Assembly (NCBI GenBank): GCA_041665405.1
Contig: JBAYIZ010000001.1
Span: 90,618-154,617, forward strand
Reading direction: 5' to 3'
DNA: 64,000 bases
DNA from: Candidatus Magasanikiibacteriota bacterium
GTDB taxonomy: Bacteria > Patescibacteriota > Patescibacteriia > Magasanikbacterales > GWA2-37-8
A program made the position numbers and the translations under genes. A model generated the notes under the pieces. That model was not told the origin of the DNA. It was given only the letters and a program-made list of their open reading frames with translations, and ran no database searches. This document shows positions 11,217 to 58,108 of the stretch, one piece after another. Numbering within the stretch: the stretch's first letter is position 1; the number at the start of each line of letters is the position of its first letter.

Positions 11217-11234
11217 AGAGGTGGAAAACAAAAA

Positions 11235-11335
11235 ACACCACCTACATAATGACTTTTTCGCTTTTTTCACCCGCGAGGGTGAAAGGATGAGCCTCGGGCT
11301 CATAACCCGCTCAAAAGTAATTATGTAGGTGGTGT
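11235..11335. repeat. Copy 1 of a ~62-nt GC-rich structured element (core 11253-11315) nested inside a 16-bp inverted repeat (ACACCACCTACATAAT / ATTATGTAGGTGGTGT)
   Basis: Core CTTTTTCGCTTTTTT-CACCC-GCGA-GGGTG-AAAGG-ATGAGCC-TCG-GGCTCAT-AACCCGCTCAAA is shared with 21043-21104. Hairpin 1 shows compensatory substitutions (CACCC/GGGTG versus TTGCCC/GGGCAA) around a GCGA tetraloop. Confidence 0.6.
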
Positions 11336-11373
11336 TTTTTTGTTTGTGTTTAGCGAAAATAGTGGGTGTGACA

Positions 11374-11479: not shown

Positions 11480-11960
11480 GTTTCGAGTGTCTTTCCCGCC
11501 GCATACTTTGCGGCCCATCCGGCGCTCATTGCGCCAGAGGTACGAGATGAGCCTGTTTTTCTTCTTCGCTCTGATGTCGATCGTCGCCAACGCTTTGACC
11601 TTCAAGGGGAAGAAATTCTCCTGGTGGGGGTTCGCGTTTGTCTTCGTGGGAGGGGCGCTCGCGGCTGTCGCGTTTTCGGAGAGCCGGGAACTGCCGATCC
11701 TCGACCACTCGTGGCAGGTCGCCGCCAGCTGGGCAGGCCTGTCCGGACTGATCGGACCGGTCGTTCAGGTGGCGTGGTTCTCCACGAACCCGCCCAAGTG
11801 CTCCGAGTGCGGGCGCAGCTGTTCCACCCACGAGAAGGTGGCGCGCATCTAGGTTTTTTGGACTTTTTCCTCCCCGAGTAAAATCGGGGGCAGTGTCGCA
11901 GACGGTCGAGCTAGTTTATTTAGCTCCCATCTGTGCCTGAAAAAAGTCCGCAATCCCTGA
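11480..11960. other. Compositionally anomalous high-GC cassette 1
   Basis: Abrupt shift from AT-rich host sequence to GC-rich sequence with GC-ending codons. Bounded by a host-like promoter at 11374 and the terminator at 11993. Confidence 0.6.
11547..11852 (+). CDS. Small (101 aa) membrane protein encoded by a GC-rich foreign-looking gene
   Basis: ATG at 11547 with an AGAGG Shine-Dalgarno 10 nt upstream. Product MSLFFFFALMSIVANALTFKGKKFSWWGFAFVFVGGALAAVAFSE... has 2-3 TM helices and a CSECGRSC tail. Codon usage is GC3-rich, unlike its neighbours. Confidence 0.6.
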   Translation: MSLFFFFALMSIVANALTFKGKKFSWWGFAFVFVGGALAAVAFSESRELPILDHSWQVAASWAGLSGLIGPVVQVAWFSTNPPKCSECGRSCSTHEKVARI

Positions 11961-21042: not shown

Positions 21043-21104
21043 CTTTTTGCTTTTTTTGCCCGCGAGGGCAAAAGGATGAGCCTCGGGCTCATAACCCGCT
21101 CAAA
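21043..21104. repeat. Copy 2 of the ~62-nt GC-rich structured element
   Basis: CTTTTTGCTTTTTTT-GCCC-GCGA-GGGC-AAAAGG-ATGAGCC-TCG-GGCTCAT-AACCCGCTCAAAG. Lies ~50 nt beyond the stop of the 21153-23714 gene and upstream of the dnaX start. Confidence 0.6.
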
Positions 21105-25283: not shown

Positions 25284-25399
25284 TTAATAATTTGGTTTAA
25301 AATAAAATTAAAATGACTTTTTATTGACAAGGAGTCATTTTTGTGTTATTGTTATCAGTTGTTCTTTAAAAATCAAAAGACCAACGGTGTGTTATTTTG

Positions 25400-26640
25400 T
25401 GCTTATTTGAGCCCAGAATAGCACACCGTTTCGTAAATCGGTGCGGCCGCCCTAAATCGCTTGGCCAGTTGGTTGAGTTGATAAAAGGGCAAACATGTCA
25501 GGAGTAAATCATGAGGAAGATTTTGTTCGTCCTGGTGGTCGCGGTTCTGGGTGCTTGCTCGCAGGAGCCCTGTACCAGCTCGGAAGAGTGGTGCACCGGT
25601 GTCGATACGTCGTCCGATTCGGACGTGTCGTCCGACGCGCAGACCGACTCGGGCATCAAGAAGCAGGAGTGCCTCGTGGCGACCGACTGCGATGACGGCA
25701 ACGCGTGCACTTTCGACTACTGCGACGGCGGCAACCCATGCACCTTCGAATATTGCAACCCCCGCGTCTGTCGGCACATTGCCATCGAGGGGGCGATTTG
25801 TGACGACGTCATCGCCGACGCCGACACCACCGCCGACGTCATCGCCGACACCGCCGCCGACACCGCCGACGTCGGCCCGGCACTCGAATGTGCCAAGGCC
25901 ATCGACTGCGACGACAAGAATCCGTGCACATTCAGTTTCTGCGACGCTGGCGTCTGCACACACATGGCCACCACGGACACGTGCGACGACGGCGATGTTT
26001 GCACGGTGAATGATGTTTGCTCGGCTGGGAAGTGCGTCTCTGGCGCTCCGGTCGTATGCGACGACAAGAATCCGTGCACCACCGACTCGTGCGACGCGGC
26101 CAAGGGTTGCGTGTACGCGGCTCCGGTCGTATGCGACGACGACAACGCTTGCACGACCGACGGTTGTGCGGCTGGCGCCTGCACCCACGTCGCCGTCGAC
26201 TGTAACGACGACAAGGTCTGCACCGCCGACTCGTGCGACCCGGCCAAGGGTTGTGCTCACAAGAACCTTGACAGTATCTGCAACGACGGTGACGCCTGCA
26301 CGATCGATAAGTGCGTCAACGACAAGTGCGTATGGTGGCCAAACCCTTGTGACGACGACAACGTCTGCACCGACGATTCGTGCGACGCGGTCAAGGGTTG
26401 CCAGAACAAGTCAACGATGGCGCCATGCGACGACGGAGACGTCTGCACGACGGGCGACACCTGCGGCAGTGACATGTATCAGCAGTGTGACGGAACTCCC
26501 ATCCTCTGCGATGGAGAACAGGCCAACGAGGAGAACTGCCACCCCGAGTTTGGCTGCTTCTAAGCCAACAACCTCCACACCAACCGAGGTAAGACAGTCG
26601 CAAGATCGTCCCAACTCGTTTTCATCATAAAAATTGTGGT
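25400..26640. other. Compositionally anomalous high-GC cassette 2
   Basis: GC-rich block with GC3-biased codons between an AT-rich region containing a promoter-like sequence/CorA terminator and the terminators at 26590-26697. Confidence 0.65.
25511..26563 (+). CDS. Cysteine-rich tandem-repeat lipoprotein (about ten ~26-aa repeats, C-D-D-x-N-x-C-T-x-D-x-C-x(3-5)-G-C), a paralog of the protein at 54712-56352
   Basis: AGGAG Shine-Dalgarno. Lipoprotein signal MRKILFVLVVAVLGAC (lipobox LGAC). Repeats CDDGNACTFDYCDGGNPCTFEYC, CDDKNPCTFSFCDAGVC, CDDGDVCTVNDVCSAGKC, and so on. Confidence 0.75.
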   Translation: MRKILFVLVVAVLGACSQEPCTSSEEWCTGVDTSSDSDVSSDAQTDSGIKKQECLVATDCDDGNACTFDYCDGGNPCTFEYCNPRVCRHIAIEGAICDDVIADADTTADVIADTAADTADVGPALECAKAIDCDDKNPCTFSFCDAGVCTHMATTDTCDDGDVCTVNDVCSAGKCVSGAPVVCDDKNPCTTDSCDAAKGCVYAAPVVCDDDNACTTDGCAAGACTHVAVDCNDDKVCTADSCDPAKGCAHKNLDSICNDGDACTIDKCVNDKCVWWPNPCDDDNVCTDDSCDAVKGCQNKSTMAPCDDGDVCTTGDTCGSDMYQQCDGTPILCDGEQANEENCHPEFGCF

Positions 26641-39017: not shown

Positions 39018-39554
39018 CTACTTCTTGCCGCGGAAGCGTTGGAGCACCTTCTTGTTGATGCTGTATTTCGAGGGCACGGTGCCCTCGAGGCAGGCTCTCG
39101 CGACCGCTTCGCTCGGGAAGAGCCGCACCCACGTACGGCGTTGCACCTGCAGCTTTTCGAGGATCACTCGTTTGCCGTTGGTGAAGCCGTCCATTCCGAA
39201 GAGGCTCTCATCCGTGAGAGTGATCTCGCGACGGACCTGCTCCGTGCCGATGTCCTCGTCGAAGTAGAGCTTGCCGAAGTCCATCAAGTCGCCGGCGTCG
39301 CGGAACTGATCGACCATGGTGGGCTCGAGCCCCGGAACGAGCGACATCATGAAGCTCTGCAACCGCTCGGCTTCGAAGATTCCCTCCTTGGGAGCGACGA
39401 CGAAGCTCATCGTCTGGCTCCAGTAGCCGTCCCTGTGGGGGATGTAGTTGATGTCGCAGCAGTTCACCACGACGATGGACGTGTTCCCCTCGAGAGCTTC
39501 GCGAACCTGCGAGAGTTTGTTCATCTTTTGATCTCCCTTCGAAGTCTTATCCAT
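39018..39554 (-). CDS. Hypothetical protein (178 aa), GC-rich foreign-looking gene
   Basis: The minus-strand product has a natural composition (MDKTSKGDQKMNKLSQVREALEG...). The overlapping plus-strand ORF is A/L/R/E-rich, typical of an antisense artefact. A promoter lies at 39678-39707. Confidence 0.6.
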   Translation of the reverse strand: MDKTSKGDQKMNKLSQVREALEGNTSIVVVNCCDINYIPHRDGYWSQTMSFVVAPKEGIFEAERLQSFMMSLVPGLEPTMVDQFRDAGDLMDFGKLYFDEDIGTEQVRREITLTDESLFGMDGFTNGKRVILEKLQVQRRTWVRLFPSEAVARACLEGTVPSKYSINKKVLQRFRGKK

Positions 39555-40086: not shown

Positions 40087-40728
40087 CTAGCGGGGCCTGC
40101 GGGGGATCTCGACGCCGAGGAGGTGCTCGAGGAGGGTGATGTCGAGAATGGTCATCCCCAGCGGTCCGAATGGCATGTCGATGGACGGACGACGGTCATC
40201 GACGGGCGCGTCGTTGATGGGCAGACCGGCCGCCATCATCTGCTTGAGGAGCATGATGCCGTCGAGGACATGCATCACAACTTCTCGCGAGTTGATGAGA
40301 TTGGCCACCTTCTCCAGGCCTTCGGCCATGCTGTGGATCTCCTTGCTGAATGCGCCGTCTTCGCGGACGATCTGGCCACGAGGGGTGGGGTAGGAGCCAT
40401 CCTTGCATACCGCGAAGCGGAACGCCGGCATGAAGTCCGCGAAGAATTCGTACGCGGACACCTTCTCGAACACCTTCTCGATCGTCTGGCAAACGCCAGC
40501 TTCTTCGATCTGCGCGAGGATGTCCAGCATCTCCTGCTCTTCGATCTTGCCGTCGTTAGCCACTGCTTGCAGCGTGGCCTTGGCGTTCTCGATGAAGAGG
40601 AGTGTACCTTCCAAGGGGACGCCTTCCAGGTGGATCTCGCCATAGGCGATACCCAGCTCATTGAGCAACTTCTGCTTTTTCCCGACGATGAACATGGCTG
40701 TCTCCAGAGCAGAACATCCACGCATCAC
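40087..40728 (-). CDS. Hypothetical protein (213 aa), GC-rich foreign-looking gene
   Basis: The minus-strand product is plausible (MMRGCSALETAMFIVGKKQKLLNELGIAYGEIHLEG...). The plus-strand overlapping ORFs are Arg/His-rich artefacts. Confidence 0.6.
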   Translation of the reverse strand: MMRGCSALETAMFIVGKKQKLLNELGIAYGEIHLEGVPLEGTLLFIENAKATLQAVANDGKIEEQEMLDILAQIEEAGVCQTIEKVFEKVSAYEFFADFMPAFRFAVCKDGSYPTPRGQIVREDGAFSKEIHSMAEGLEKVANLINSREVVMHVLDGIMLLKQMMAAGLPINDAPVDDRRPSIDMPFGPLGMTILDITLLEHLLGVEIPRRPR

Positions 40729-46918: not shown

Positions 46919-49900
46919 ATGAAAAAATCCGAATCTTCCTTAAATGCTCCAGAGCGTGTTAGTAAATTTGACGCAGATAAATTTGCAGTAAATGATGAAA
47001 TAATTTATCGTGATCCGTCCGCTGGTTGGGTACGTGGTAAGTTGGCCAGAAAGCCTGAAGTGACTCCAGATAAGGCTATCAAAATTACCTTAACTGGTAG
47101 AGTGGAACACGTTGTACATATACCGCCAAAATTGGTTGAATTTTCGTCAACTACTGGTCGGGTGAGACGGGTGAAATATGATGGTAAGGAATATGGCGTG
47201 GGCGATGTTCACATCGGACCAAACGGAGAAATTTGGTATGATCTGACAGATCCTGCTACTCCGACTCGTGTAGTATTGAGAAAAATAGATCAAGAGGTGA
47301 TTCGTAATTTGAGTGAAATTTCAAAAATTGAAACCAAGCTAACAACTGCGGGTACTGGTGATATTGCACGCTTGGTTACTGAAGTAAAAAAAGTTCAAGG
47401 CGAGAAGCGCACAGAATTAATGAAACAAATAAATGATTTGGAATTAAAAATCAAGGAAATGCATCACCAAATATCTGATTTAGGTGAATTGTCTGAATTG
47501 GAAGCTGGACAGATGGTGACTGTGTCTGCAGAAATTAAAAAAATAAAATCTGCGATAGATGCGGCGATAAGAAAATTGGATACCGAAATTAGTGAAATCA
47601 TTGCCAAGGAGGAAAAAAGTGGGGAAGTTAAAGAAAGAAAAGAAAATGCCGAGACATTTCAAACTATGATTGATAGAGAGTTTGCTGGTATTGATAGAAC
47701 TGCAAAAATAAAATTTGACAGTGAACATGCTAAATGGGTAAAAAAATCTGAAGCATTTGAACGTTGGGATAGCGAAAGAAAGGTGTTGACGGAAGCGTTG
47801 AAGGCTGCCAAAAATGATAATGCTTTGAAAGCCGTAGCACAAAGAGCTATCGATGATTTTGACCGTGATCCACGAAATATACCGCGTCCTGTAAAACCAC
47901 CACCAGAAAAGACATTTGAAAAACCAAGTGGTAATCCAATAAAACAAGAAGAAATTACTATACAAATATTTAATGATTTGACAGCTGCTAGGTTGGCTTT
48001 TGATACTGCCAATGCAGTTGTTCCACCAGCCACTCCACCAGTTTTTAGATTTGCAGATTTTTTGGATTCAGTTGATGCAAAAAGAAAAGCAAACGCTGCA
48101 AAGGAGGGTCTTACGGATTATCTGCACCCTGGTCGAGTTCTGTCACAGTTGAGTCCTCGTGCTATTGAAACAATAAAAATAATAAAGGAGATGATTGAAG
48201 AATGGAAAAATCTACAAGAAACCGAAGCTTTCAATTTCAAAAAAGAAAAAGCCGAATTGGAAGCAGACGTAGAAAGATTGGTCTTCAAACTACAAACACA
48301 AACAGGTGTTTCAAGATTAGAGACAAGACTTGAGGCTATCCGAACTAATATTACAGCATTAAAATCGTCTACTGCGGGTGTGGACAAAGTTATGATTGAT
48401 TATTGGCGTGAGTTAGGTAACTTAGAAAAAGATATATTGAGTGCTGAACTAAAGACAAAAGCCAGTACAACAGAAAGAGAAGTGAAATTTGTCGATTTAC
48501 CCCGCGGTATAATGAAGGAAATGATGTTGGCCAAGCCAGCTGAGTTCAAAGAGGTTGTAAAACAATCCTATGACGCAGTTATCAGTGAAGGCAAATCTAC
48601 TAGTGATCTTGAACTAGCGATGGCCAAATGGTTGGATGGAATAGATGTGGATGCGACGACACCACCACTACGAGGCAGGATGGCCCAATATGGTATCAAA
48701 GATTGGGAAGGTTTTAGAAAACAATTCAAAAATAAATTATCCAAGGATTTTTCACTGTTGATGATGGCCAATACTGATAGTCAGTTGCGCAATTTGTTGA
48801 CTCAAAAAATTGCTGATATAAAAAATAATCCGGCTCGTTGGAAATTCTATACAAAAGATTTTTGGAGGGAAATAAGACAAGAACACTGGGACACTTCGAC
48901 CTTTGTTAATATGAAAGCCTCGATGGCTGCGCGTATGGGAATAAATATAGCTGTGTTGGGTACTATCGGCGGCGGTCTTAGCCTTGCGTTAAAATTGGTA
49001 CCTATTCCAGGGGTGGTGAAAGCAGGTATAGTTGGTAGTGCTGTTGGTTTTGCCAAGGCAGGAATACAAAGAATAATGGGCAAAGACACAAACTATTATT
49101 CGAAAGAACAAGAAAGAGCAAAAAAAGTTGCTGATGAAAAGAAAAAACAATTTATTACCGATGAACTAATGAGTAAAATGTTTACCACAGATGTTTTAAA
49201 TCCAGGAATAAAACCAGAACAGGTTGATATGATGGCTGACATGTTTACTATATCCATGCGTAAAGTGACTGGTAAAAAAGAAGGTCAAGAATTAGCTGTG
49301 ACTGATGGCACTGAAACTATCACTCTAAAGGGTGATACTGTGTGTATGTTCCATGAGATGTTGAAAAATGCGGCAGAGGCGGAGGGAGTAGATGTTGAAG
49401 ACAAAAAAATTCGATTGGAATTTGCCAAAGCATTATATGCGTTACACAATAATGATGCAATAAAAGTACAAGAACAAGATCCTATAGAAGTACGCGCATG
49501 GCAAAAAATAATAGATATATATTCTGGAAAAAGTTCGGTTGCTTCGCGTGGTGGACAATCCCCAGATATGTTGCGCAGACAAGGACTAGGAGCGCAAGCA
49601 GATGAATTGGAGAAAAAACAAAAAATGGATTTTGGTACTCAAGCTATGATAACTGCCGGCATGGGTGGTTCTGTTGCAGCGGTGATGGTTTATAATAGTG
49701 ATATTGGTCGTGGTGTTTTGGGAGCTACCATTTTTGGTTTGGCTGGAGAGAAAGCCGGTTTGAAATCAGAGCGCAATTCAGCAGATAGAGATAGTATCCA
49801 GCATGTTGAGTCAAATTTGTTTCAAATAAATACACATATAAATGATGCTTTGACAGGAGGTTCACACACGGTCTCTGATGGTCATACAAAAATGACCAAA

Positions 49901-51958
49901 GAGTATTATGATTTATTTTCGGTACTTTTGGCAGGTCGTTCGTTGAATGAATTGACTTTGACCAACATTCCAGCGGACGATTTAAAATATTATCAGAAAC
50001 ACGCGAAAGACGTGGCGGGAATGTTACAAAGAAATACAAAATATCGCAGTATCGTTGAAGGAACAATCCGCGAAATTTCACGTTCTGGTTTGTTGGAAAA
50101 AGCTGGCTTTATGGCTTGCTTGGCAAATATCCAAAATACTACTACTCACATGGGTAAAGCGGCAGAGAATAGTATGGGTACAAAATTTGGTAGCGCCGCT
50201 CGAAGACATATTAGAGCTGTTATATATGCTGGAATTGGTTTAGGAACATTTTTGCTTGTTGGTCAAGGTATTGAGGCAGCAAAACACCATTTATCCACTG
50301 AGACATCAGCATCTGGAACTGGTCGCCCTGAAGGTTCAGCTATCGTCGGAGGTGCTAGAGTTGTGGCTGGAGGAATTCCATCGGATCACGTACCTATGGC
50401 TCATTATGCGGATGTTCATCCATCTGCCCCAAAAGATGTTTTTGAAGCGTCCCGTCCAGATGTAGTACCAACCGCCGAAGTTCCAGAATCATTCAATGTT
50501 CGTCCTGCCGGTTTAGTTGAAGCTCCGACAAAAGTTTCTGGTGGTGTGTCAGATTGGGAACATCAGATGAAAGCGAAACTTGGTATCACAGAACATTATA
50601 ATAAAAACGGATCACTAAAATTTGTTGAGCATTCATTGCGTTTCCATCCTGATAAACCAAATGTGGTGGATGGTATTAATACAAAAGAAATAATTCCAGG
50701 CGCGAAAATTACTTTGACCCATTCTGATGGTACAGATGTAAAAGATGTTCACGGTAAAGTGGTGGAATTTAAATTTTCAAAAGGTGACAGTGTGTCACGT
50801 GCTATGGATCATTTGCGAAGTAGCGCCAAAGGTTTGTTGAAAGCAGGCGAGATACCAACAGTCAGAGTGTCTGGCAATGTCCAAGTTGGTGATGATAATG
50901 GTCACTCCATGATCGAAAAGCATGTGGGAGGAAAAACTCATATTGAACAAGGTGATCGCATTCCTAAAGGTGGTAAATTTACAAAAGAGGGAGCGGGTGA
51001 TTTATTTGAACCGATTACTGGTGAGCCGACTGGTTTTAATAAAACTGGTGCCGGTCATCTTTTTGATGATATTCCTAGTCACTCAGCCGGTTTCAATAAA
51101 AGTGGTGCAGGTGAACTCTTTGATGATATTCCTAGTCCGCGTAGTGGGGTGGCTGAAGTGCAACCTTTTGTTGCCGAAAGCTCAGGTTCTTCAATCAAAT
51201 GGTCCACTGGTGGCGCGATAGAAAATAAGGCTGGTCTTGAGGCGATGCTTCATGGTACACAACCAGGCGGAGCTGTCGAAGCTGGCGCGCCACAAGTTGC
51301 AAAAGTTGGTGGGGTGGTTGAAGCTGCTGGTGCAGGTGGTGTCAAAGGTGGAACTCCAGAAGTAGCGGTACAATCTGTCGGGAATAAAATTGAGACAGTC
51401 GCCTCTATAGAAAGCGCAGTAGAAATTCCTGCTGAAATTCCTGAGGAGTTGAGACCACAATATTTGGAATGGGCGGATGTCAAAGAAAATTTTGTTAGTT
51501 CATTTAGCAAGGATCTAAATATTGATATAAAAGACAATAGTGGAATTTTGTCGAAGTTGATGAATCAATTGGATGCTGGTATTAAGGCAAATCCAAATTG
51601 GTTGAAGGATGCTGATGTCCGACAAATTTTGGATAATCCTAATTTGACTACCGGAGATAAATTGAGTAATTTGATGGTGGTGATGGGTGAAAAAAATCTA
51701 TTAATACCACCACTTTCTCCAGAAGAGCAATTGATTTTTAGTGATGTTTCCAAAATTGAACCCGATGATAATACTTTTGAAAGGTTTAATATGAAAGATG
51801 CTAAGGGAAATGAGTATATAGCAGGGGTGGTAAAAGGGGAAGGTTCCCATGTGGCAGTTTATCAAGATGTTGCCACCGGAAAAACCTTTATTCAGACCGA
51901 TCCAAATATATCGTTTACTCGCAAATGGTTTGGGAACCTATTTAAGGATGTCAAGTAG
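46919..51958 (+). CDS. Giant (1679 aa) protein with an N-terminal coiled-coil region, a central cluster of Gly-rich TM helices and a C-terminal region with short GAG(D/H/E)LF(E/D)(P/D)I repeats
   Basis: Single uninterrupted ORF. TM-like segments (GINIAVLGTIGGGLSLALKLVPIPGVVKAGIVGSAVGFA and others). Three ~20-aa repeats at ~50990-51130. Terminator at 51981-52006. Confidence 0.7.
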   Translation: MKKSESSLNAPERVSKFDADKFAVNDEIIYRDPSAGWVRGKLARKPEVTPDKAIKITLTGRVEHVVHIPPKLVEFSSTTGRVRRVKYDGKEYGVGDVHIGPNGEIWYDLTDPATPTRVVLRKIDQEVIRNLSEISKIETKLTTAGTGDIARLVTEVKKVQGEKRTELMKQINDLELKIKEMHHQISDLGELSELEAGQMVTVSAEIKKIKSAIDAAIRKLDTEISEIIAKEEKSGEVKERKENAETFQTMIDREFAGIDRTAKIKFDSEHAKWVKKSEAFERWDSERKVLTEALKAAKNDNALKAVAQRAIDDFDRDPRNIPRPVKPPPEKTFEKPSGNPIKQEEITIQIFNDLTAARLAFDTANAVVPPATPPVFRFADFLDSVDAKRKANAAKEGLTDYLHPGRVLSQLSPRAIETIKIIKEMIEEWKNLQETEAFNFKKEKAELEADVERLVFKLQTQTGVSRLETRLEAIRTNITALKSSTAGVDKVMIDYWRELGNLEKDILSAELKTKASTTEREVKFVDLPRGIMKEMMLAKPAEFKEVVKQSYDAVISEGKSTSDLELAMAKWLDGIDVDATTPPLRGRMAQYGIKDWEGFRKQFKNKLSKDFSLLMMANTDSQLRNLLTQKIADIKNNPARWKFYTKDFWREIRQEHWDTSTFVNMKASMAARMGINIAVLGTIGGGLSLALKLVPIPGVVKAGIVGSAVGFAKAGIQRIMGKDTNYYSKEQERAKKVADEKKKQFITDELMSKMFTTDVLNPGIKPEQVDMMADMFTISMRKVTGKKEGQELAVTDGTETITLKGDTVCMFHEMLKNAAEAEGVDVEDKKIRLEFAKALYALHNNDAIKVQEQDPIEVRAWQKIIDIYSGKSSVASRGGQSPDMLRRQGLGAQADELEKKQKMDFGTQAMITAGMGGSVAAVMVYNSDIGRGVLGATIFGLAGEKAGLKSERNSADRDSIQHVESNLFQINTHINDALTGGSHTVSDGHTKMTKEYYDLFSVLLAGRSLNELTLTNIPADDLKYYQKHAKDVAGMLQRNTKYRSIVEGTIREISRSGLLEKAGFMACLANIQNTTTHMGKAAENSMGTKFGSAARRHIRAVIYAGIGLGTFLLVGQGIEAAKHHLSTETSASGTGRPEGSAIVGGARVVAGGIPSDHVPMAHYADVHPSAPKDVFEASRPDVVPTAEVPESFNVRPAGLVEAPTKVSGGVSDWEHQMKAKLGITEHYNKNGSLKFVEHSLRFHPDKPNVVDGINTKEIIPGAKITLTHSDGTDVKDVHGKVVEFKFSKGDSVSRAMDHLRSSAKGLLKAGEIPTVRVSGNVQVGDDNGHSMIEKHVGGKTHIEQGDRIPKGGKFTKEGAGDLFEPITGEPTGFNKTGAGHLFDDIPSHSAGFNKSGAGELFDDIPSPRSGVAEVQPFVAESSGSSIKWSTGGAIENKAGLEAMLHGTQPGGAVEAGAPQVAKVGGVVEAAGAGGVKGGTPEVAVQSVGNKIETVASIESAVEIPAEIPEELRPQYLEWADVKENFVSSFSKDLNIDIKDNSGILSKLMNQLDAGIKANPNWLKDADVRQILDNPNLTTGDKLSNLMVVMGEKNLLIPPLSPEEQLIFSDVSKIEPDDNTFERFNMKDAKGNEYIAGVVKGEGSHVAVYQDVATGKTFIQTDPNISFTRKWFGNLFKDVK

Positions 51959-52006: not shown

Positions 52007-52074
52007 AATTTGTATAGATTGGCTAAAATAAAGCAAAATATGTCCAAAAACTACCTTTTATTCGTAATGGGGTA

Positions 52075-52103
52075 TTGACAAGGTTCCTATATTATGCTAT
52101 ACT
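52075..52103 (+). promoter_or_regulatory. Strong sigma70-type promoter (TTGACA, 17-nt spacer, TGCTATACT)
   Basis: TTGACAaggttcctatattatgcTATACT in the AT-rich spacer ahead of high-GC cassette 4. Confidence 0.5.
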
Positions 52104-52109
52104 TATCCG

Positions 52110-52243
52110 TTATGCTGATGAATAGGTAAAGACTGTCAGCAAGCATCTATTTATAGATCTGAGAGAGGTCTAGAGATAGATAGGTCAAGATACTATATAT
52201 TATCATTATATATTGCCGACTCTCTCACCATGGAGAGTTTTTT
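52110..52243 (+). ncRNA. Candidate ~135-nt small RNA or leader bounded by the promoter at 52075 and an intrinsic terminator (ACTCTC-TCACCATG-GAGAGT followed by T7)
   Basis: No credible ORF. Promoter-to-terminator unit entirely within noncoding DNA. Confidence 0.3.
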
Positions 52244-52348
52244 TACATCATTGTCAGCCAGAGTTTAGTGAATGAGAATTTCTTTAAACTCGGACTGATA
52301 AAGTCCATTAAGTTCTTTACAATATATACGCAACTACTAAAAAATCAT

Positions 52349-52395
52349 CTGTGTGGGAGTAAGTCTGTGATAGTCATAGCTTTACTCCCACACAG
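52349..52395. repeat. 14-bp perfect inverted repeat CTGTGTGGGAGTAA / TTACTCCCACACAG with a 19-nt spacer, exactly at the AT-to-GC transition of cassette 4
   Basis: The motif CTGTGTGGGAGT recurs at 54569-54580, again upstream of a cassette gene. Confidence 0.6.
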
Positions 52396-52537
52396 GTGGA
52401 GGTGAGTGACTTCGGTTGCTCTTCTCCCTGGGTTAGGGAGAAACGTCGGAAGATCGTCGAAACGTTCGTCAACGTCCGAAAGTCTCAACAAGTCGGTAAC
52501 CAACCACGACTGTGAGAGACACCTCAAGGAGTCCCAG

Positions 52538-53320
52538 ATGAAGTGCCCGAACTGCTCCCATGAGATCGCTGTCAATCCCACCCCGAACAACTGCCCGGAG
52601 TGCGGGTACCTGCTGCTGACCGCTCCGATCGCGATGCGGCCGCCGCGTCTGGTCGGTTCCTTCGATTGCGTCCAGCAGGAAGAGGAGCCGCGCCAGCAGC
52701 CTCGTCCCGCCCAGCGCCAGCCGGAAGTCGCCGCGCCCAAGAAGTCGTTCCCGTGGCTGCTCACGCTCATCGCGATTTTCGCGGTGGTGGGAGCGGCCGC
52801 CTCGGTCGGCCACTGGATCCACTGGGGAGAGGTCGGAACGACCGTCGGCGACATGGCGAGCAGCGCCAAGACCCACGAGAACCAGACCGTCACCCGCGTC
52901 AACAGCGCGATCGTCGGTTCGGTTGGTTACGTGGTCGCCCAGGCGCGCGTCAACGCATCCGCCATTCGTGGCGATGTGGCTGGTGTTCTCGCGCAAGAGA
53001 ACGTCAACGCATCCGCCATTCGCGGCGACGTGGCTGGCGCTCGAAGTGACGTGGCCGCGGTGAAGGCTCAGATCATGGCCAATGACTCGGTGATCCGCCG
53101 GGACATCATCAACCAGGGTCAGAGCACTCGCCGGGCCATCTGGCGCATCCGCTCCGAGCAAGTCCGCCCCAACGCGGTCGACAACAACACGGCCACCAAG
53201 GCCGACGTCGACCAGGCCAAGCGCGATTTGCAGGACTGGATGACGGCCAACCGGATGAAGGTCGTCGTGGCCCCTTCGGCCGCCCCGACTCCGACTCCGA
53301 CGGCCGCTCCGGCCCGCTAG
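52538..53320 (+). CDS. Zinc-ribbon (CPNC...CPEC) single-pass membrane protein with an external Ala/Val-rich domain containing a tandem 11-aa repeat (NASAIRGDVAG, twice) and a PT-rich tail
   Basis: AAGGAG Shine-Dalgarno 7 nt upstream of the ATG at 52538. MKCPNCSHEIAVNPTPNNCPECGYLL, TM helix WLLTLIAIFAVVGAAASVGHW. Architecture is reminiscent of zinc-finger anti-sigma-factor-like proteins (inference). Confidence 0.6.
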   Translation: MKCPNCSHEIAVNPTPNNCPECGYLLLTAPIAMRPPRLVGSFDCVQQEEEPRQQPRPAQRQPEVAAPKKSFPWLLTLIAIFAVVGAAASVGHWIHWGEVGTTVGDMASSAKTHENQTVTRVNSAIVGSVGYVVAQARVNASAIRGDVAGVLAQENVNASAIRGDVAGARSDVAAVKAQIMANDSVIRRDIINQGQSTRRAIWRIRSEQVRPNAVDNNTATKADVDQAKRDLQDWMTANRMKVVVAPSAAPTPTPTAAPAR

Positions 53321-53701
53321 CCTCCCCGGCTAGCAGTAGTTGCGTAGGGGACCAGGTGCGACTTTCGCCCTGGTCCCCGCCAACTTCTCCTCTGTCTTTA
53401 GAGGAGACACTATTATCTGACGACGCTGATTATTGAGCGTCGAAAGGTTAGTGGCAAGACAAAAATCCCAAACAGGGTGCCCGAGCAATCGGGCCACTGG
53501 TTTAGATAATAAGAGATTGTTATCTGAAACGGTGGTATAAAAACCATCTCGTTCCTTTCAATATTATCCCAGCAAAATTTCCCATCGCGAAGAAAGAGTA
53601 TTGTAATAATATTTTTTCTTAGCGATGGGAGAATGTCCTCCCCACGTGAGCCGGAACCGCTCCGGTAAATATGGTTGGGGACCACCCACAAGGAGAGGCA
53701 G

Positions 53702-54298
53702 ATGCTTCGCAGTTTCCTCGTGGCGACCATCGTCGCCATCACCGCGTTCGCGGTCGGGGCCAAGCCGTGCTTGGCGCAAGAGCAGGATACCGTCGTCACC
53801 CCCCAGCCGAACCAGACCGTCGAGGTCACGGTTTTGCCTGGTGGTGATGTGACGGTGGTCACCCCTCCCACCATCACGAAGCCGTCGTTGATTCACGCAG
53901 AACTCGGCCTCAAGGCCGGCTACATCGCGGGCAACGCGCCCTCGATGGTGGTCATGCCGAACGTCGGCTTGACCCTGCGTCTCTCGAACGACTGGTTCCT
54001 TCGCGCCTCGGCCGCTGGTGGCCTCGCTCGGCATGGTTCCGTGACCGACTTCAACGTCGGCCTCGGGGTGTGGGTTTCCGATTACTTCCGCCTGACGCTT
54101 TCGGGTGGGCAGATTGTCCAACGGACACCTGCCTTCGCCTGGAACCAGGGCGCGCTGGTCGGATCTCTTTCCGCCGATTACTTCCTCGGCCCCCACGCGT
54201 TCGTCGGGGTGGAAGGTTTCGGTGGTCCGAGCTGGGACCAACTCGATCAGCTCAGTAGCTCCCTCGGGGGCAAGCTGAACATCGGCTGGCGTTTCTGA
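53702..54298 (+). CDS. Outer-membrane beta-barrel-like protein (OmpA-like / OmpW-size, ~8 strands) with signal peptide and a C-terminal aromatic signature
   Basis: Signal MLRSFLVATIVAITAFAVGAKPCLA. Alternating hydrophobic beta-strand pattern. C-terminus ...GGKLNIGWRF ends in Phe, the classic OMP sorting signal. Confidence 0.55.
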   Translation: MLRSFLVATIVAITAFAVGAKPCLAQEQDTVVTPQPNQTVEVTVLPGGDVTVVTPPTITKPSLIHAELGLKAGYIAGNAPSMVVMPNVGLTLRLSNDWFLRASAAGGLARHGSVTDFNVGLGVWVSDYFRLTLSGGQIVQRTPAFAWNQGALVGSLSADYFLGPHAFVGVEGFGGPSWDQLDQLSSSLGGKLNIGWRF

Positions 54299-54505
54299 TC
54301 TACGGATCAGGCACCATGCTCCTTCTCGCGTCATGTTTATGATGATGCGAAGAGTGAGCGGTGAGCCAGCATTCCTGACACCGGGGGGAGCTATGATAGC
54401 ACCTTGTGTCAGGCTCCCTTCTTAGTGAATATATTATGTGTTCATTGAGAAGGGAAGTTACTGATAGCTATTTGACAATTTAAAGACTAGTTAAAAAATA
54501 ATAAA

Positions 54506-54559
54506 CCTGCGCGGGGAATTTAGCATATATCCAAATATATTCTGAATTCCCCGCGCAGG
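54506..54559. promoter_or_regulatory. 15-bp perfect inverted repeat CCTGCGCGGGGAATT / AATTCCCCGCGCAGG with a 24-nt AT-rich spacer, ~150 nt upstream of the Cys-rich gene
   Basis: Seen directly. Could be a terminator for the OMP-like gene or an operator. Confidence 0.5.
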
Positions 54560-54711
54560 CAGCCTTCGCGCTGTGTGGGAGTTTCGGTCCTAGACCGAAG
54601 CGACTCCCGCACTACGCGGGGGAGTGTGCTGTGAGAGGTACGAGACAGTCTCCGACGGTTGGCAACTTCGCTGACCTGAGGAAAAGGGTTTCTTTTGGAG
54701 GATACGTCCAG

Positions 54712-56352
54712 ATGGCTACCAAGCTCATCAAGCTGGCCGCGAGCTGCGCGGCGGTGTTCTGTTTCTTCACCCTTTCGGTCGGTTGCGAAAGCGCTCCGAC
54801 CATCCCGGCCGACATCGATGGCGGTTCGGTCGACACCGGCACCATCGACAACGACGCCGATGCGGGCACGACTGACGCCAACCCGTGCGACGACGGCAAC
54901 GCCTGCACGACCGACAAGTACGTCGCCGACACGTGCATCTACATCGCCATCGTCGCGCCCTGCGACGACGGCAACGCCTGCACGACTGGCGAGATGTGCA
55001 ACTTCGTCGGCATCTGCGGCGGCGCCACGCCCACGCAGTGCGACGACAACAGCGCCTGCACCACTGATACCTGCGACTCGACCAAGGGTTGTGTCTTCGC
55101 GGCCAACGCGGCCTGCGACGACGGTGACCTTTGCACCACCGACACCTGCGACCCGACCAAGGGCTGCGTCTTCGCGGCGAATACCTGCGACGACGGCAAC
55201 GCCTGCACCACCGACCTCTGCACCACCGGGGGCAACTGCTCCCACCTGCCGACGTCGGCTGCTTGCGACGACGGCAACGTGTGCACCTCGGGCGACACCT
55301 GCGTGACCGGCACCTGCGCCGGAACCGCCGTCACCTGCGACGACGGCAACGTGTGCACCGACGACGCCTGCGTTCCAAACGTGGGCTGCATGCATGGCAT
55401 CAACGTGATGCCCTGCGACGACGGCAGCGCGTGCACCTCGGGCGACACCTGTTTCGGTGGCGCTTGCGCCGGAACGGCGGTCTCGTGCGACGACAACAAC
55501 CCGTGCACGAACGACCTGTGCGACGGGGCCGTGGGGTGCGACTTCGCCCCCGCGACCTGCGACGACGGCGATCCGTGCACCATCGACACCTGCGACGCGG
55601 CAACCGGCTGCGCCTTCGCCGACAAGGTCTGCGACGACGGAAAAGTCTGGACCTGGGACAACTGTGACGCCTCTGGGTGGTACACCGGAACGGCCGGCGC
55701 GTGCTATTTCGACAACAAGTCGGGCGCCTGCCAGAAGGACTCGGACTGCACGGACAGCAATCCGTGTACGTTCGACGTGTGCAACCCGTTCACCGGGACC
55801 TGCAACGCGCCGTTGCAGGTCAGCTGCAACGACGGCAATCCCTGCACCTTGGATTATTGCCTCCCCGCACCCGGCTGCGTCAACGACGCGAAGGTGTGCA
55901 ACGACGGCAACGCCAAGACAGCGGACTCCTGCAGCGCAGCCACGGGAGTCTGTGTCTTCACGCCCATTTCGCAACCGCCCGTCAACCCGCCCGACACCGT
56001 CAAGATCGAAGTCCAGTGCGGAGCGTTTTCCGGGGAAGTTCATCCCATGTACGGGCTGACGGCTGATGGCAAGGGGTTCGATCCCTTCGGCCTGACGACC
56101 GGCACCGCGCCGTATGTGAACAACCTGCTCAAGGCGCAACTGTGCGTCTGGGGTTCGGAGATCGCGGTGCGTGACCTGTCCACGCCGTACCAGCTGTGGT
56201 TCGGTTGCGACAGCCCCACGAAGCTGGACGTCTGCGTCGTCAAGGTGAACGGTTTGCTCGTGCCCAACAAGTACGTGCATCACCTCAACGCCTGCATGGG
56301 CGGCGGCCAGGGCAACATCCAGCTTACCCCGGAGGACTTCGGCTGCAAGTAG
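54712..56352 (+). CDS. Cysteine-rich tandem-repeat secreted (lipo)protein (~14 CDDGNxCTxDxC...GC repeats) with a distinct ~130-aa C-terminal domain. A larger paralog of the protein at 25511-26563.
   Basis: GGAGG Shine-Dalgarno. Signal MATKLIKLAASCAAVFCFFTLSVGC. Repeats CDDGNACTTDKYVADTC, CDDGNACTTGEMC, CDDNSACTTDTCDSTKGC, CDDGDLCTTDTCDPTKGC, and so on. C-terminal domain carries conserved Cys pairs. Confidence 0.75.
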   Translation: MATKLIKLAASCAAVFCFFTLSVGCESAPTIPADIDGGSVDTGTIDNDADAGTTDANPCDDGNACTTDKYVADTCIYIAIVAPCDDGNACTTGEMCNFVGICGGATPTQCDDNSACTTDTCDSTKGCVFAANAACDDGDLCTTDTCDPTKGCVFAANTCDDGNACTTDLCTTGGNCSHLPTSAACDDGNVCTSGDTCVTGTCAGTAVTCDDGNVCTDDACVPNVGCMHGINVMPCDDGSACTSGDTCFGGACAGTAVSCDDNNPCTNDLCDGAVGCDFAPATCDDGDPCTIDTCDAATGCAFADKVCDDGKVWTWDNCDASGWYTGTAGACYFDNKSGACQKDSDCTDSNPCTFDVCNPFTGTCNAPLQVSCNDGNPCTLDYCLPAPGCVNDAKVCNDGNAKTADSCSAATGVCVFTPISQPPVNPPDTVKIEVQCGAFSGEVHPMYGLTADGKGFDPFGLTTGTAPYVNNLLKAQLCVWGSEIAVRDLSTPYQLWFGCDSPTKLDVCVVKVNGLLVPNKYVHHLNACMGGGQGNIQLTPEDFGCK

Positions 56353-56659
56353 CCGTCTAGTCGCTCGGGAATTTATCCGATTTATATTAATCGGCGGGGA
56401 TACCAGCTTGACAACTGGGATTCCTCGAGAGGCCATTGTGGCCAAACCTGACCCATTTCGGGTCGCCGTATTTCGCGACGAGAGATCGTAGCGGAGTCGG
56501 TCAGCCGGGGCACTCAAAGGAGTGCCCCACCGTCTTGAATTCATAATCTCGGTTGTGAGTTGAAGATGGAAATACTATTATCTCCATTACAAAAACACCG
56601 CCCTTCTCTCGGGTGGTTTTTTGTTTGTCTTTTTAGTGAATTTTTGATACAATATTTAT

Positions 56660-58108
56660 ATGTTTAAAAGAAATAATCAAGACAATCCGCCAAATTTATT
56701 ATTTCCGCGTCTATCTCCCTGGGAGCAAGAATTTACCATGGGTGCTGCGGCGATTTTATTATTTTGGTCGCTGTTGTTGCTTTTGCCATTGCAGATGTTT
56801 TTGAGTTTTGGTGTGGCCATACTGGCGATATTTTTGGTGATTGCCTTTATTTTTAAACTAGAATTACTTTTTTATATTCTTACCACCGTCTCTTTTTTCA
56901 CCGGTTGGGAGATTTCTTTTTCGAAATATGAATGGGCGAGAAATGTGGTTTATCTTTCTTCGGTGAATGCGCCGCTAGGGGATTTTATCGGGGTAATGTT
57001 GCTCGGTTTGTCTCTGTTGGCGATTATTTTTGGGCGTTTACATCCGGTTTGGAAAGATAAAAAGATTTTAATTAAACTATCTGGTTTGTATTTATTATTC
57101 TTGTTGTGGTCGTTAGTCTGCGCTTTATTTGCGTATGATCACAATTGGTCTGCCAGCATGAAATACTTGGCACGTAACATGACTTTTGTGTATGTGGTGT
57201 TTGTGGTAATGCCGGTGATTTTGATAGACAAATTAGAAACGGTAAAAAACATTTTGAAAATTTGGTTTGGAGTGGGACTATTAGCGGCACTGTTCGGTCT
57301 GTCTTCCTTGTATTTTTTCGCTCAGACTGGTTGGCCACGGGTGACACCGTACGGCATCGCTGGTTTTGCTCCGCTAGGTTATAACCATAATTTGATTGCT
57401 GAAGTTTTGGTAGTGGTACTACCAGCGGGATTGTATTTATTTTTGAAAGCCAAAACTGATAAATTGAAACAAAGATATTTTTGGGGGATGATTTTGACTT
57501 TACTCGCGGCACTTCTAACATTGTCTCGTGCGGCATGGGTTACTATTTTTGCTCAGTTGGCAGTATTGGGTGTTGTTTATTTTGAAGAGATAAAATTAAG
57601 ATTTAAGAAAATTTCTAATTTTAATTTTTTGATATCGCTGTTGGTGGCGGCGGTGTTTGCATATATGGTGTTCTTTTTGACCACTCCGATTGTCCAAAGT
57701 TCTACCAGCTCACGTTTTGCGATGACGGAAATTTCATTTTTCTATGCCAATCGTTCACCAGTGTTTGGTTATGGACCAGGGATGTTTGTCCAGTTGCTTA
57801 GTTCAGTCCAAGATTGGACACAGGAATATGGTTCAGCATTAGATTCTCATGGGATTGTACAAAAAATAATTGTCGAAGATGGTTATGTTGGTTTGATTTT
57901 AATCTTGATATTTTTGACATATTTGTTTAAAACATTGTGGACGGCGTATAAGGTGAGTGATGACAAGGAATTGTATATGATATTGTTTATGTCGGTAGTT
58001 GGAGCGGTGATTTTCCAATTTTTTAATACTTCTTATTTTACCAGTGTGATGTGGCTACCGATTGGATTGGCTTTGAGCGCGGCTACTTTTTTGAAAAAAG
58101 ATTTGTAA
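56660..58108 (+). CDS. O-antigen ligase / polymerase-like (Wzy/WaaL family) polytopic membrane protein
   Basis: 482 aa, ~10-12 TM helices, and a Wzy_C-type motif (LLTLSRAAWVTIFAQLAVLGV). Confidence 0.6.
   Translation: MFKRNNQDNPPNLLFPRLSPWEQEFTMGAAAILLFWSLLLLLPLQMFLSFGVAILAIFLVIAFIFKLELLFYILTTVSFFTGWEISFSKYEWARNVVYLSSVNAPLGDFIGVMLLGLSLLAIIFGRLHPVWKDKKILIKLSGLYLLFLLWSLVCALFAYDHNWSASMKYLARNMTFVYVVFVVMPVILIDKLETVKNILKIWFGVGLLAALFGLSSLYFFAQTGWPRVTPYGIAGFAPLGYNHNLIAEVLVVVLPAGLYLFLKAKTDKLKQRYFWGMILTLLAALLTLSRAAWVTIFAQLAVLGVVYFEEIKLRFKKISNFNFLISLLVAAVFAYMVFFLTTPIVQSSTSSRFAMTEISFFYANRSPVFGYGPGMFVQLLSSVQDWTQEYGSALDSHGIVQKIIVEDGYVGLILILIFLTYLFKTLWTAYKVSDDKELYMILFMSVVGAVIFQFFNTSYFTSVMWLPIGLALSAATFLKKDL

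Follow-up and report, generated by a model that had tools for sequence, protein, structure and literature searches.

How does a lineage that is thought to have no outer membrane come to keep a gene for an outer-membrane-type beta-barrel? The question is raised by a short open reading frame (ORF) at 53702-54298 (+) in a 64-kb stretch of a Candidatus Magasanikbacteria contig, the whole of which we call the window. Magasanikbacteria belong to the Candidate Phyla Radiation (CPR, or Patescibacteria), bacteria that make up a large share of bacterial diversity, are treated as monoderms, and attach to and feed on hosts in ways that are largely obscure. The CPR have been proposed to lack an outer membrane, TonB-ExbBD and PilQ being missing (PMC6744442), or to have 'lost' it (PMC10160955), and their type IV secretion system (T4SS) is of the monoderm type (PMC12102498). 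Our analysis favours, with moderate confidence, a putative functional barrel anchor that is resident in the Magasanikbacteria lineage and acts at the cell surface or at the interface with a host.

A predicted eight-stranded barrel with an intact C-terminal signature

The ORF starts with ATG at 53702 and closes with a stop codon at 54296-54298, exactly as in the original prediction, and a ribosome-binding site, AGGAG, lies at 53690-53694, 6 nt upstream of the ATG. Its 198-aa product is deposited in GenBank as MFA6423814.1 (hypothetical protein WCV83_00705, Candidatus Magasanikbacteria, on a 155,971-bp contig). By inspection, the N-terminus reads as a Sec-type signal peptide, MLRSFLVATIVAITAFAVGA/KPCLA/Q, with a positively charged n-region, a hydrophobic core and an A-x-A-like site (AVGA/K or CLA/Q). 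This peptide comprises residues 1-25 (53702..53776, +), with cleavage after A20 or A25; the second N-terminal type found in the family has a signal peptide ending in ...FSAQA/E. A variable, Thr/Val/Pro-rich segment of low AlphaFold2 (AF2) confidence follows (residues 26-63; 53777..53890, +), and then the predicted eight-stranded barrel domain, which ends in GWRF (residues 64-198 plus the stop codon; 53891..54298, +). The mature protein accordingly measures 173-178 aa, close to the ~180 aa first estimated, and about 135 aa of it form the barrel.

The window protein terminates in ...KLNIGWRF, and the pattern L-x-[LIF]-[GN]-W-R-F is found in all eight known family members, with Phe as the last residue and, in most of them, Gly at -5. 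A beta-signal carries a terminal aromatic residue, usually Phe, with hydrophobic residues at -2, -4 and -6, and the family pattern has this form; the invariant terminal WRF thus fits, as far as sequence can tell, the beta-signal of proteobacterial outer-membrane proteins (OMPs). Across residues 63-198, the beta-type hydrophobic moment exceeded that of shuffled sequences with z = 2.2 (a value reached by 39 of 2000 shuffles), and the alpha-type moment was not raised. When strand faces were averaged over the eight members, one face was hydrophobic (mean Kyte-Doolittle value +1.55) and the opposite face, rich in Gly, polar and charged residues, averaged -0.79; every invariant Gly, Asp, Glu and Arg fell on the polar face, and W, Y and F were found at strand ends. 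A hydrophobic face opposed to a polar face that holds the invariant residues is expected of a barrel embedded in lipid and polar inside; soluble barrels show the opposite.

We ran AF2 twice, with alignments of four and then eight sequences, and obtained the same eight strands of 12-15 residues both times (64-76, 81-93, 98-109, 112-124, 129-141, 147-161, 166-179 and 184-197), with five concordant models. The predicted local confidence (pLDDT) was 84-95 across residues 61-198, and all inter-strand loops, on both sides of the barrel, measured 2-5 residues. Foldseek against the PDB returned only membrane barrels among its top 50 matches and no soluble barrels of the lipocalin or avidin type. The matches, with E-values of 2e-5 to 8e-4 and TM-scores on the target of up to 0.65, included NspA (1p4t, E 1.8e-5), the transmembrane (TM) domain of OmpA, Ail, OmpX, OmpW and designed transmembrane barrels; Foldseek against BFVD retrieved models of phage-encoded 'outer membrane protein beta-barrel' proteins (E 5e-5 to 3e-3). 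Closure of the barrel, and which residues point inwards or outwards, were read from these matches and from the dyad pattern.

Could the protein instead be a secreted or wall-associated soluble beta-rich protein, whose OMP matches reflect generic up-and-down beta-meander geometry? An alignment of eight sequences is shallow, no OMP family is matched at the sequence level, a z of 2.2 is not large, and the membrane that such barrels normally enter is presumably missing from the organism, all of which would suit a soluble protein. The pLDDT values, the agreement of the five models and of the two AF2 runs, the membrane-barrel matches, the orientation of the conserved faces, the aromatics at strand ends and the terminal Phe do not, and we regard the soluble alternative as highly unlikely. 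The ORF product is therefore best described as a small OMP-type eight-stranded barrel, predicted by modelling. The strand periodicity and C-terminal Phe that had first suggested a barrel of this type are borne out by AF2, by Foldseek, by the family-wide dyad pattern and by WRF in 8/8 members.

A new protein family with a known type of predicted fold

Exhaustive scanning of 1.84 billion representatives with phmmer yielded three proteins. Word-indexed searches of 5.8 billion clusters, the second of them with a profile that added four sequences, brought the family to its eight distinct known members of 197-205 aa, and all eight homologues lie on contigs with the same spacers or context. The barrel alleles compared for base composition are those of the window and of loci L001, L004, L005, L087, L088, L094 and L095. 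No homologue was recovered by protein-pattern scans of 185,579 GTDB species genomes, JGI metagenome contigs and IMG/VR, nor did tblastn recover one from plasmids or phages; JGI metagenome contigs and IMG/VR likewise held no match to an exact spacer-DNA pattern. A diderm homologue was found in none of the databases searched.

Profile searches were equally empty. Pfam and NCBIfam gave zero matches for the first four family members even at E<=10; OMP_b-brl (PF13505), Ail_Lom (PF06316), OmpA_membrane (PF01389) and OmpW (PF03922) produced no profile match above the gathering score. Searches of PHROGs and PADLOC and sequence and profile searches of the PDB with the barrel returned nothing, and hhalign of the barrel family against OmpX gave a probability of 0.15%. 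Judged on these comparisons, the barrel appears to be a new sequence family of a known structural kind and not a member of OmpX/Ail, OmpA or OmpW.

The closest known barrels are OmpX of E. coli (1qj8/1qj9), Ail of Y. pestis (3qra) and NspA of Neisseria (1p4t), together with the Lom and Opa types. OmpX, Ail and NspA are the best Foldseek matches (TM-score 0.55-0.65 on the target) and share with the predicted protein a signal peptide, eight antiparallel amphipathic strands of 12-15 residues, a hydrophobic belt and a polar, Gly-rich lumen with conserved charges. OmpX also shares a G-x-G-aromatic-R/K-F C-terminus, GVGYRF in OmpX and GLGWRF in the barrel family. OmpX, Ail and Opa function through protruding extracellular loops, and the barrel has none; it differs further from OmpX, Ail and NspA in its extra variable N-terminal tail of ~40 residues, in lacking detectable sequence homology, and in being encoded in the genome of a CPR bacterium, a lineage proposed to have no outer membrane. 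The N-terminal domain of OmpA (1bxw, 1qjp) and OmpW (2f1t), matched by Foldseek at E 2e-4 to 8e-4, are likewise poreless eight-stranded barrels used as membrane anchors, but the barrel described here has no peptidoglycan-binding OmpA_C domain, no long loops and no Pfam match, and its extra segment is N-terminal, not C-terminal.

Two further comparisons are instructive. The phage barrels of Vibrio phage nt-1 (R9TIU5) and Synechococcus phage S-CBWM1 are also small, OMP-type and carried on accessory DNA of different composition; in contrast to them, the present gene has no PHROG match and no phage genes nearby, and occupies a fixed chromosomal site across relatives, not a prophage. The de novo designed TM barrels 6x9z and 8uzl (TM-score 0.50-0.64 on the target) resemble the protein in having eight strands joined by minimal hairpins of 2-5 residues on both sides, and those designs enter bilayers without the beta-barrel assembly machinery (BAM). 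The present barrel, known from sequence and model, is by contrast of natural origin; it carries a signal peptide, and its C-terminus resembles a beta-signal.

The gene belongs to a CPR chromosome

The rest of the window is an ordinary CPR chromosome segment of ~38% GC that encodes SecA, SecDF, DnaX, CysRS, LigA, PPDK, IF3, tmRNA and a T4SS coupling protein; type IV pilus genes are also present, without a secretin. CysRS shares 75-80% identity with that of Candidatus Magasanikbacteria metagenome-assembled genomes in GTDB. From this identity and from the NCBI organism name, the host of the barrel gene can be taken to be a CPR bacterium. The original prediction had placed the gene in a CPR-like organism without a classical outer membrane, and both parts agree with the assignment made here and with the absence proposed in the literature (PMC6744442, PMC10160955, PMC12102498).

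A high-GC stretch of another organism might have been joined to a CPR contig during assembly or binning: the GC shifts are abrupt, and short-read metagenome assemblies can be chimeric. A second, independent ENA assembly (a 137,663-bp contig) holds the same barrel region, however, so that the same junctions occur in two independent assemblies of more than 130 kb and an assembly chimera is therefore ruled out. The architecture also recurs, with low-GC orthologous flanks, in other samples, and the five islands of this one window would need about ten chimeric joins; such an artefact is scarcely credible.

The ENA annotation (L086) calls antisense ORFs of 256 and 674 aa (53564-54334 and 54520-56544, both on the minus strand) in place of the barrel and Dicty_CTDC genes. 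High GC makes long spurious ORFs in several frames, which is why these genes are absent from some protein databases, and a public annotation that holds only wrong-strand ORFs in the region of islet genes 2 and 3 is a warning for annotators. Elsewhere in the window, SecD (6497-8569) is fused to two PpiC-type parvulin (rotamase) domains, a fusion that would put a foldase directly on a translocon accessory protein.

Long residence at a surface locus

The barrel gene is the middle one of three high-GC genes at 52538-56352, hereafter the islet, which encode a membrane-anchored protein, the barrel and a Cys-rich protein. Directly 5' of the islet lies the gene of a giant protein (46919-51958), which has no Pfam match and measures 1650-1740 aa across loci; the 3' neighbour is a low-GC Wzy_C gene (56660-58108). 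Because the giant protein adjoins Wzz-like, DUF5663, Wzy_C and GT4 genes, we consider this a cell-surface locus. In every locus whose contig is long enough (L087, L088, L089 and L090), the barrel occupies the same site as in the window, between the giant-protein gene and Wzy_C, with a high-GC membrane-protein gene on its 5' side, and flanking orthologues in these loci share 72% (Wzz-like), 54% (355-aa protein) and 66% (264-aa protein) aa identity with those of the window. The islet has thus been in place since before the related lineages diverged, and the barrel is no recent passenger.

Between alleles, synonymous divergence (dS) in the barrel domain is saturated (0.8-1.8) and the ratio of nonsynonymous to synonymous divergence (dN/dS) is 0.2-0.4, from which the barrel appears to be under purifying selection. 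The N-terminal tail, which exists as two unrelated sequence types, is under far weaker constraint, with a dN/dS of 0.4-0.8 in most pairs and 0.21 in the lowest. Alleles also differ from their surroundings: between L087 and L088, flanking DNA is 88-95% identical at the nucleotide level and the barrel 71% (65% at the aa level). Between the window and L001, the upstream spacer and the signal peptide are near-identical (dS 0.06) and the mature part is saturated, a combination that marks a recombination mosaic. Fast evolution of the islet together with allele mosaicism is the behaviour of exposed surface or interface proteins.

These data bear on the idea of a foreign cassette from a diderm donor. 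If the gene had been acquired recently and were carried passively, functionless in the CPR cell, its GC content at third codon positions (GC3), 0.79 against 0.28-0.40, its sharp compositional boundaries and the other high-GC genes at four further window sites would be explained, and horizontal gene transfer and genomic islands are common in Patescibacteria (PMC12455944). Passive carriage agrees poorly with a site shared by related genomes and a dN/dS of 0.2-0.4. Outside the clade, a homologue was found in no database searched, there is no integrase, transposase, tRNA junction or flanking direct repeat in or beside the islet, and the islet has its own conserved promoter and hairpin spacers. A recombinase gene is also absent from the 64-kb window. 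We rate the chance of such a recent arrival as remote, and recent passive transfer from a diderm donor is largely refuted. Of the cassette originally proposed, the foreign composition stands and the recent insertion does not. The diderm donor fares no better: the known homologues all come from contigs that share these spacers and, where context is available, from the corresponding site in related Magasanikbacteria, and none found was from a diderm. The original prediction had itself held that closest homologues in monoderm lineages would speak against such a donor, and it is in monoderm lineages that they were found; as a recent event, the donor is refuted.

Like the compositional islands described in Patescibacteria (PMC12455944), the islet deviates strongly in base composition and holds ORFan genes of surface or unknown type. 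Unlike them, its genes stand singly between conserved AT-rich structured spacers without mobility genes, its position is conserved across relatives, and its GC3 is unameliorated despite saturated synonymous divergence. We also considered and rejected two classes of element. An integron cassette with attC sites was set aside, as there is no integrase, no RYYYAAC/GTTRRRY core sites were seen by inspection, the hairpins precede ORFs beside promoter-like sites, and pairing is at the RNA level; a prophage or defence island was rejected in view of missing phage and defence families and missing mobility genes.

The neighbours vary more than the barrel does. Islet gene 1 (52538..53320, +; MFA6423813.1, 260 aa) combines a C4 zinc ribbon at the N-terminus with a single TM helix, external repeats and a tail rich in Pro, Thr and Ala; a database search with it found only the protein itself. 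At the corresponding position 5' of the barrel, two relatives (L088 8787-9665, L087 7372-8262) carry not the zinc-ribbon protein but a 292-296-aa protein with collagen-like G-x-y repeats at both ends, a central TM helix and a GC3 of 0.92. The first islet position is therefore exchangeable, whereas the barrel is kept. Islet gene 3 (54712..56352, +) encodes a 546-aa protein, signal-peptide or lipoprotein-like, with at least 10 Cys-rich Dicty_CTDC repeats (PF00526, 1e-49) and then a C-terminal domain, and its orthologues lie 3' of the barrel in L087 and L090, whose contigs extend past the barrel. The giant protein also diverges: the relatives' genes (L087 1696-6639, L088 2929-8148) share a conserved N-terminus, and alignment of either with the window protein is confined to a stretch of ~220 residues at about 30% identity.

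Two of the assembled loci overlap at their ends. The 3' end of L002 (1515-1544) equals the 5' start of L001 (1-30), an exact 30-nt overlap (k-1, k = 31), and over 1204 nt elsewhere they match at 100% identity. From this, the P0002 locus might be either a circle of ~2.28 kb or an array of [membrane protein-barrel] units in tandem.

A persistently GC-rich gene in an AT-rich genome

The barrel gene has a GC content of 0.64 and stands in a host of 0.36-0.40 GC (the host GC3 range was taken from SecA, SecD, CysRS, DnaX, the giant protein and Wzy). Islet genes 1 and 3 are similar to the barrel in this respect, with GC3 of 0.81 and 0.87. Seven high-GC genes (GC3 0.79-0.87) occur in the window at five sites, mostly singly and flanked by AT-rich DNA: 11500-11850, 25511-26563, 39018-39554 (-), 40087-40728 (-) and 52538-56352. 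Family matches were obtained for just two of the seven, both Dicty_CTDC proteins. A diversity-generating retroelement or rRNA was excluded as the cause of the GC peaks, which are protein-coding with GC3 of 0.79-0.87. In related Magasanikbacteria (L006, L011, L013, L014 and L015), higher-GC stretches adjoin CysRS, and in the three examined (L011, L013 and L015) they encode different lipoprotein or Cys-rich proteins.

All barrel alleles have a GC3 of 0.70-0.81, and neighbouring islet genes reach 0.93, in hosts of 0.3-0.4 and with saturated dS. In a two-state amelioration estimate, at least 0.5 substitutions per synonymous site per lineage would need an ancestral GC3 above 1. Synonymous changes polarised in three closer triplets comprised 45 GC>AT and 25 AT>GC, giving an equilibrium GC3 near 0.67, not 0.3, by a parsimony estimate whose distant outgroups inflate the AT>GC counts. 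Such an equilibrium would contradict neutral amelioration and is suggestive at this stage. Candidate explanations for the GC-rich state are codon- or mRNA-level selection, biased gene conversion where recombination is frequent, and repeated import from an unseen reservoir.

Structured spacers separate the islet genes

The islet spacers are 380-410 nt long, AT-richer, and 70-79% identical at the nucleotide level among the loci that share them, well above synonymous sites (loci compared: L001, L002, L004, L005, L087, L090, L094 and L095). Spacer 1 (53321..53701, +), structured and of about 42% GC, shows 70-76% identity (L001, L004, L094) and is common only to loci with the N-terminal type of the window; spacer 2 occupies 54299-54711. 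RNAalifold gave -151 and -103 kcal/mol for spacers 1 and 2, with 11 and 13 pairs, respectively, compensated on both sides. Three conserved stem-loops directly follow the barrel stop (54312-54363, 54374-54413 and 54414-54456, +), where 9 of 51 pairs keep pairing through double changes across seven loci; in one spacer helix, CCTGACAC/GTGTCAGG changes to CCCGACGA/TCGTCGGG between loci. Because G.U wobbles are tolerated on the + strand only, the structure acts in RNA. Rfam, searched at the gathering score and at E<=1, held no family for the spacers and gave just generic miRNA-like hairpin matches.

Promoter-like sites and hairpins of 50-70 nt accompany these structures. A sigma-70-like, TG-extended promoter, TTGACA-17-TATACT, lies at the AT-rich left edge of the islet (52075..52103, +), and ahead of gene 1 a TTTACA-18-AAAAAT site (52316) precedes a long hairpin (52346..52398, +) with 25-nt arms, CTGTGTGGGAGTAAG...CTTTACTCCCACACAG. 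A hairpin of the same motif type stands in spacer 2 (54506..54559, +), near-perfect, with 25-nt arms that are 92% complementary, 3' of a promoter-like TTGACA-16-AAAAAT site ahead of gene 3 (54472..54499, +); its arms covary between loci (GGGGAATT/AATTCCCC versus GGGAGTAA/TTACTCCC). Spacer 1 has a long hairpin ahead of the barrel (53571-53639, +), and no promoter-like site was found there on the barrel strand. The unit composed of a TTTACAA promoter and a long CCTGYGYGG... hairpin precedes genes 1 and 3 in the window and the barrel itself in L087, L088 and L095, and could represent a structured RNA or an expression cassette of a new type. A terminator-like hairpin with a T-run closes the islet just 5' of the Wzy_C gene (56597..56617, +). 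We take the spacers to be probable expression, stability or processing elements.

The promoter-plus-hairpin layout is also seen at 25322-25430, ahead of another high-GC gene. A set of spacer motifs common to all high-GC islands was not supported: the specific spacer sequences are unique to the barrel islet, and only the general layout recurs. Two similar, strong promoter-like sequences (TATTGACAAGG...TATACT or TATTGT) occur just 5' of two high-GC islands, at 52073-52245 and 25322-25365. The 52075 promoter is followed ~115 nt on by a terminator-like hairpin with a T-run (52218-52239), a pairing that suggests a short independent transcript. Elsewhere, a 61-nt sequence with two GC-rich hairpins is present in two copies at 92% identity (11255-11315 and 21044-21104), with a compensatory change from CACCC/GGGTG to GCCC/GGGC. 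Inverted repeats of 33 nt (11225-11257 / 11313-11345) enclose the first copy, and at the gathering score Rfam gave no match to the sequence, which could be a miniature mobile element or else a small RNA.

Candidate membranes for the barrel

How might such a protein work in a CPR cell? Each islet gene stands 3' of an AT-rich spacer whose conserved RNA is highly structured, and sigma-70-like promoters and a long hairpin go with this layout. The barrel gene has a strong ribosome-binding site and a signal peptide, and its product would be exported by Sec, for which SecA and SecDF are encoded in the window. The mature protein would then present its variable tail of ~40 residues, followed by a poreless barrel with a hydrophobic outer belt and a Gly/salt-bridge interior, and the minimal-loop barrel would serve as an anchor by inserting into a bilayer at the cell surface. 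The candidate bilayer that we prefer is the cell's own membrane or an unrecognised outer layer; second comes a host's outer membrane where the two cells meet. The variable tail, joined by the products of islet genes 1 and 3, would make up a rapidly evolving module at the surface or for attachment. As to origin, the gene may be an old acquisition from a high-GC, presumably diderm source, with GC-rich codon usage that has been actively maintained since; an ancient diderm origin would be the simplest source of the barrel fold. Of the two possibilities first raised for the gene, a diderm donor and an unusual envelope feature, purifying selection and long residence favour the latter.

Lysolipids should ease the unassisted insertion of a barrel. 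One study reports that they are enriched in CPR bacteria (PMC7242380). Minimal loops like those of the self-folding designed barrels would favour insertion without assistance, and so would lysolipid-rich CPR membranes.

Several points weigh against a resident barrel anchor. The fold rests on AF2 with an alignment of eight sequences, the strand periodicity of the single sequence is modest, and the equilibrium GC3 carries the outgroup bias given above. There is no sequence link to any OMP family, so that a diderm origin is drawn from the fold alone. We know of no precedent for a beta-barrel in a bacterial cytoplasmic membrane. The strict invariance of WRF implies that a BAM-like reader, the cell's own or a host's, still matters, and this fits poorly with unassisted insertion. 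Finally, BamA, Lpt, Lol and TolC are all missing from the 64-kb window, although a single window cannot settle their absence genome-wide.

The invariant WRF leads to two alternatives that supply such a reader. In one, the cell has a second, outer membrane of its own, or patches of it, with a BAM-like insertase, and the barrel is a resident OMP tethered by the neighbouring membrane protein and lipoprotein. An exact beta-signal-like WRF in 8/8 members and purifying selection would be expected of such a protein, and of its partners one looks like an inner-membrane protein whose tail is rich in Pro, and the other like a lipoprotein. The envelope of Magasanikbacteria has moreover never been imaged, and few CPR envelopes have been described (PMC8871954). 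Weighed against this are the missing TonB-ExbBD and PilQ and the monoderm-type T4SS of the CPR (PMC6744442, PMC12102498, PMC10160955), the lack of BamA, Lpt, Lol and TolC in the window, pilus genes without a secretin, and the fact that just one tiny OMP family is seen. An outer membrane of this kind is, in our judgement, unlikely.

In the other, the barrel is directed at a host: released where the two cells touch, it would end up in a diderm's outer membrane, inserted by the host BAM or spontaneously, and there hold the episymbiont by way of its N-terminal tail and the surface proteins encoded on either side, as the host-side anchor within a three-protein module. This would account for a beta-signal kept although the CPR presumably have no BAM (PMC6744442), and for codon usage like that of a high-GC organism. 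Minimal loops would favour unassisted insertion, as in designed barrels, the barrel evolves faster than its flanks with the allele mosaicism typical of interface proteins, and the neighbourhood is one of surface-glycan genes and a giant surface protein. Delivery is the difficulty, since BAM works from the periplasmic side and no route into the host periplasm is evident. The conserved part, besides, is the barrel itself, with variation only in the tail, and the proposal is purely inferential, with no known host. We consider host delivery quite unlikely.

Significance for the CPR envelope

Returning to the resident barrel anchor that we favour, its islet shows GC-rich genes persisting for a long time, singly, between structured AT-rich spacers in an AT-rich, streamlined genome, a pattern that contradicts simple amelioration. 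More broadly, an OMP-type barrel that is conserved across a clade, under selection and equipped with an intact beta-signal is a clonable handle on the questions of CPR envelope structure and host contact. It may turn out that some CPR have kept or rebuilt an outer lipid layer, that a barrel works in a single-membrane cell, or that the protein acts in the membrane of a host. Each of these outcomes, if true, would change a textbook assumption.

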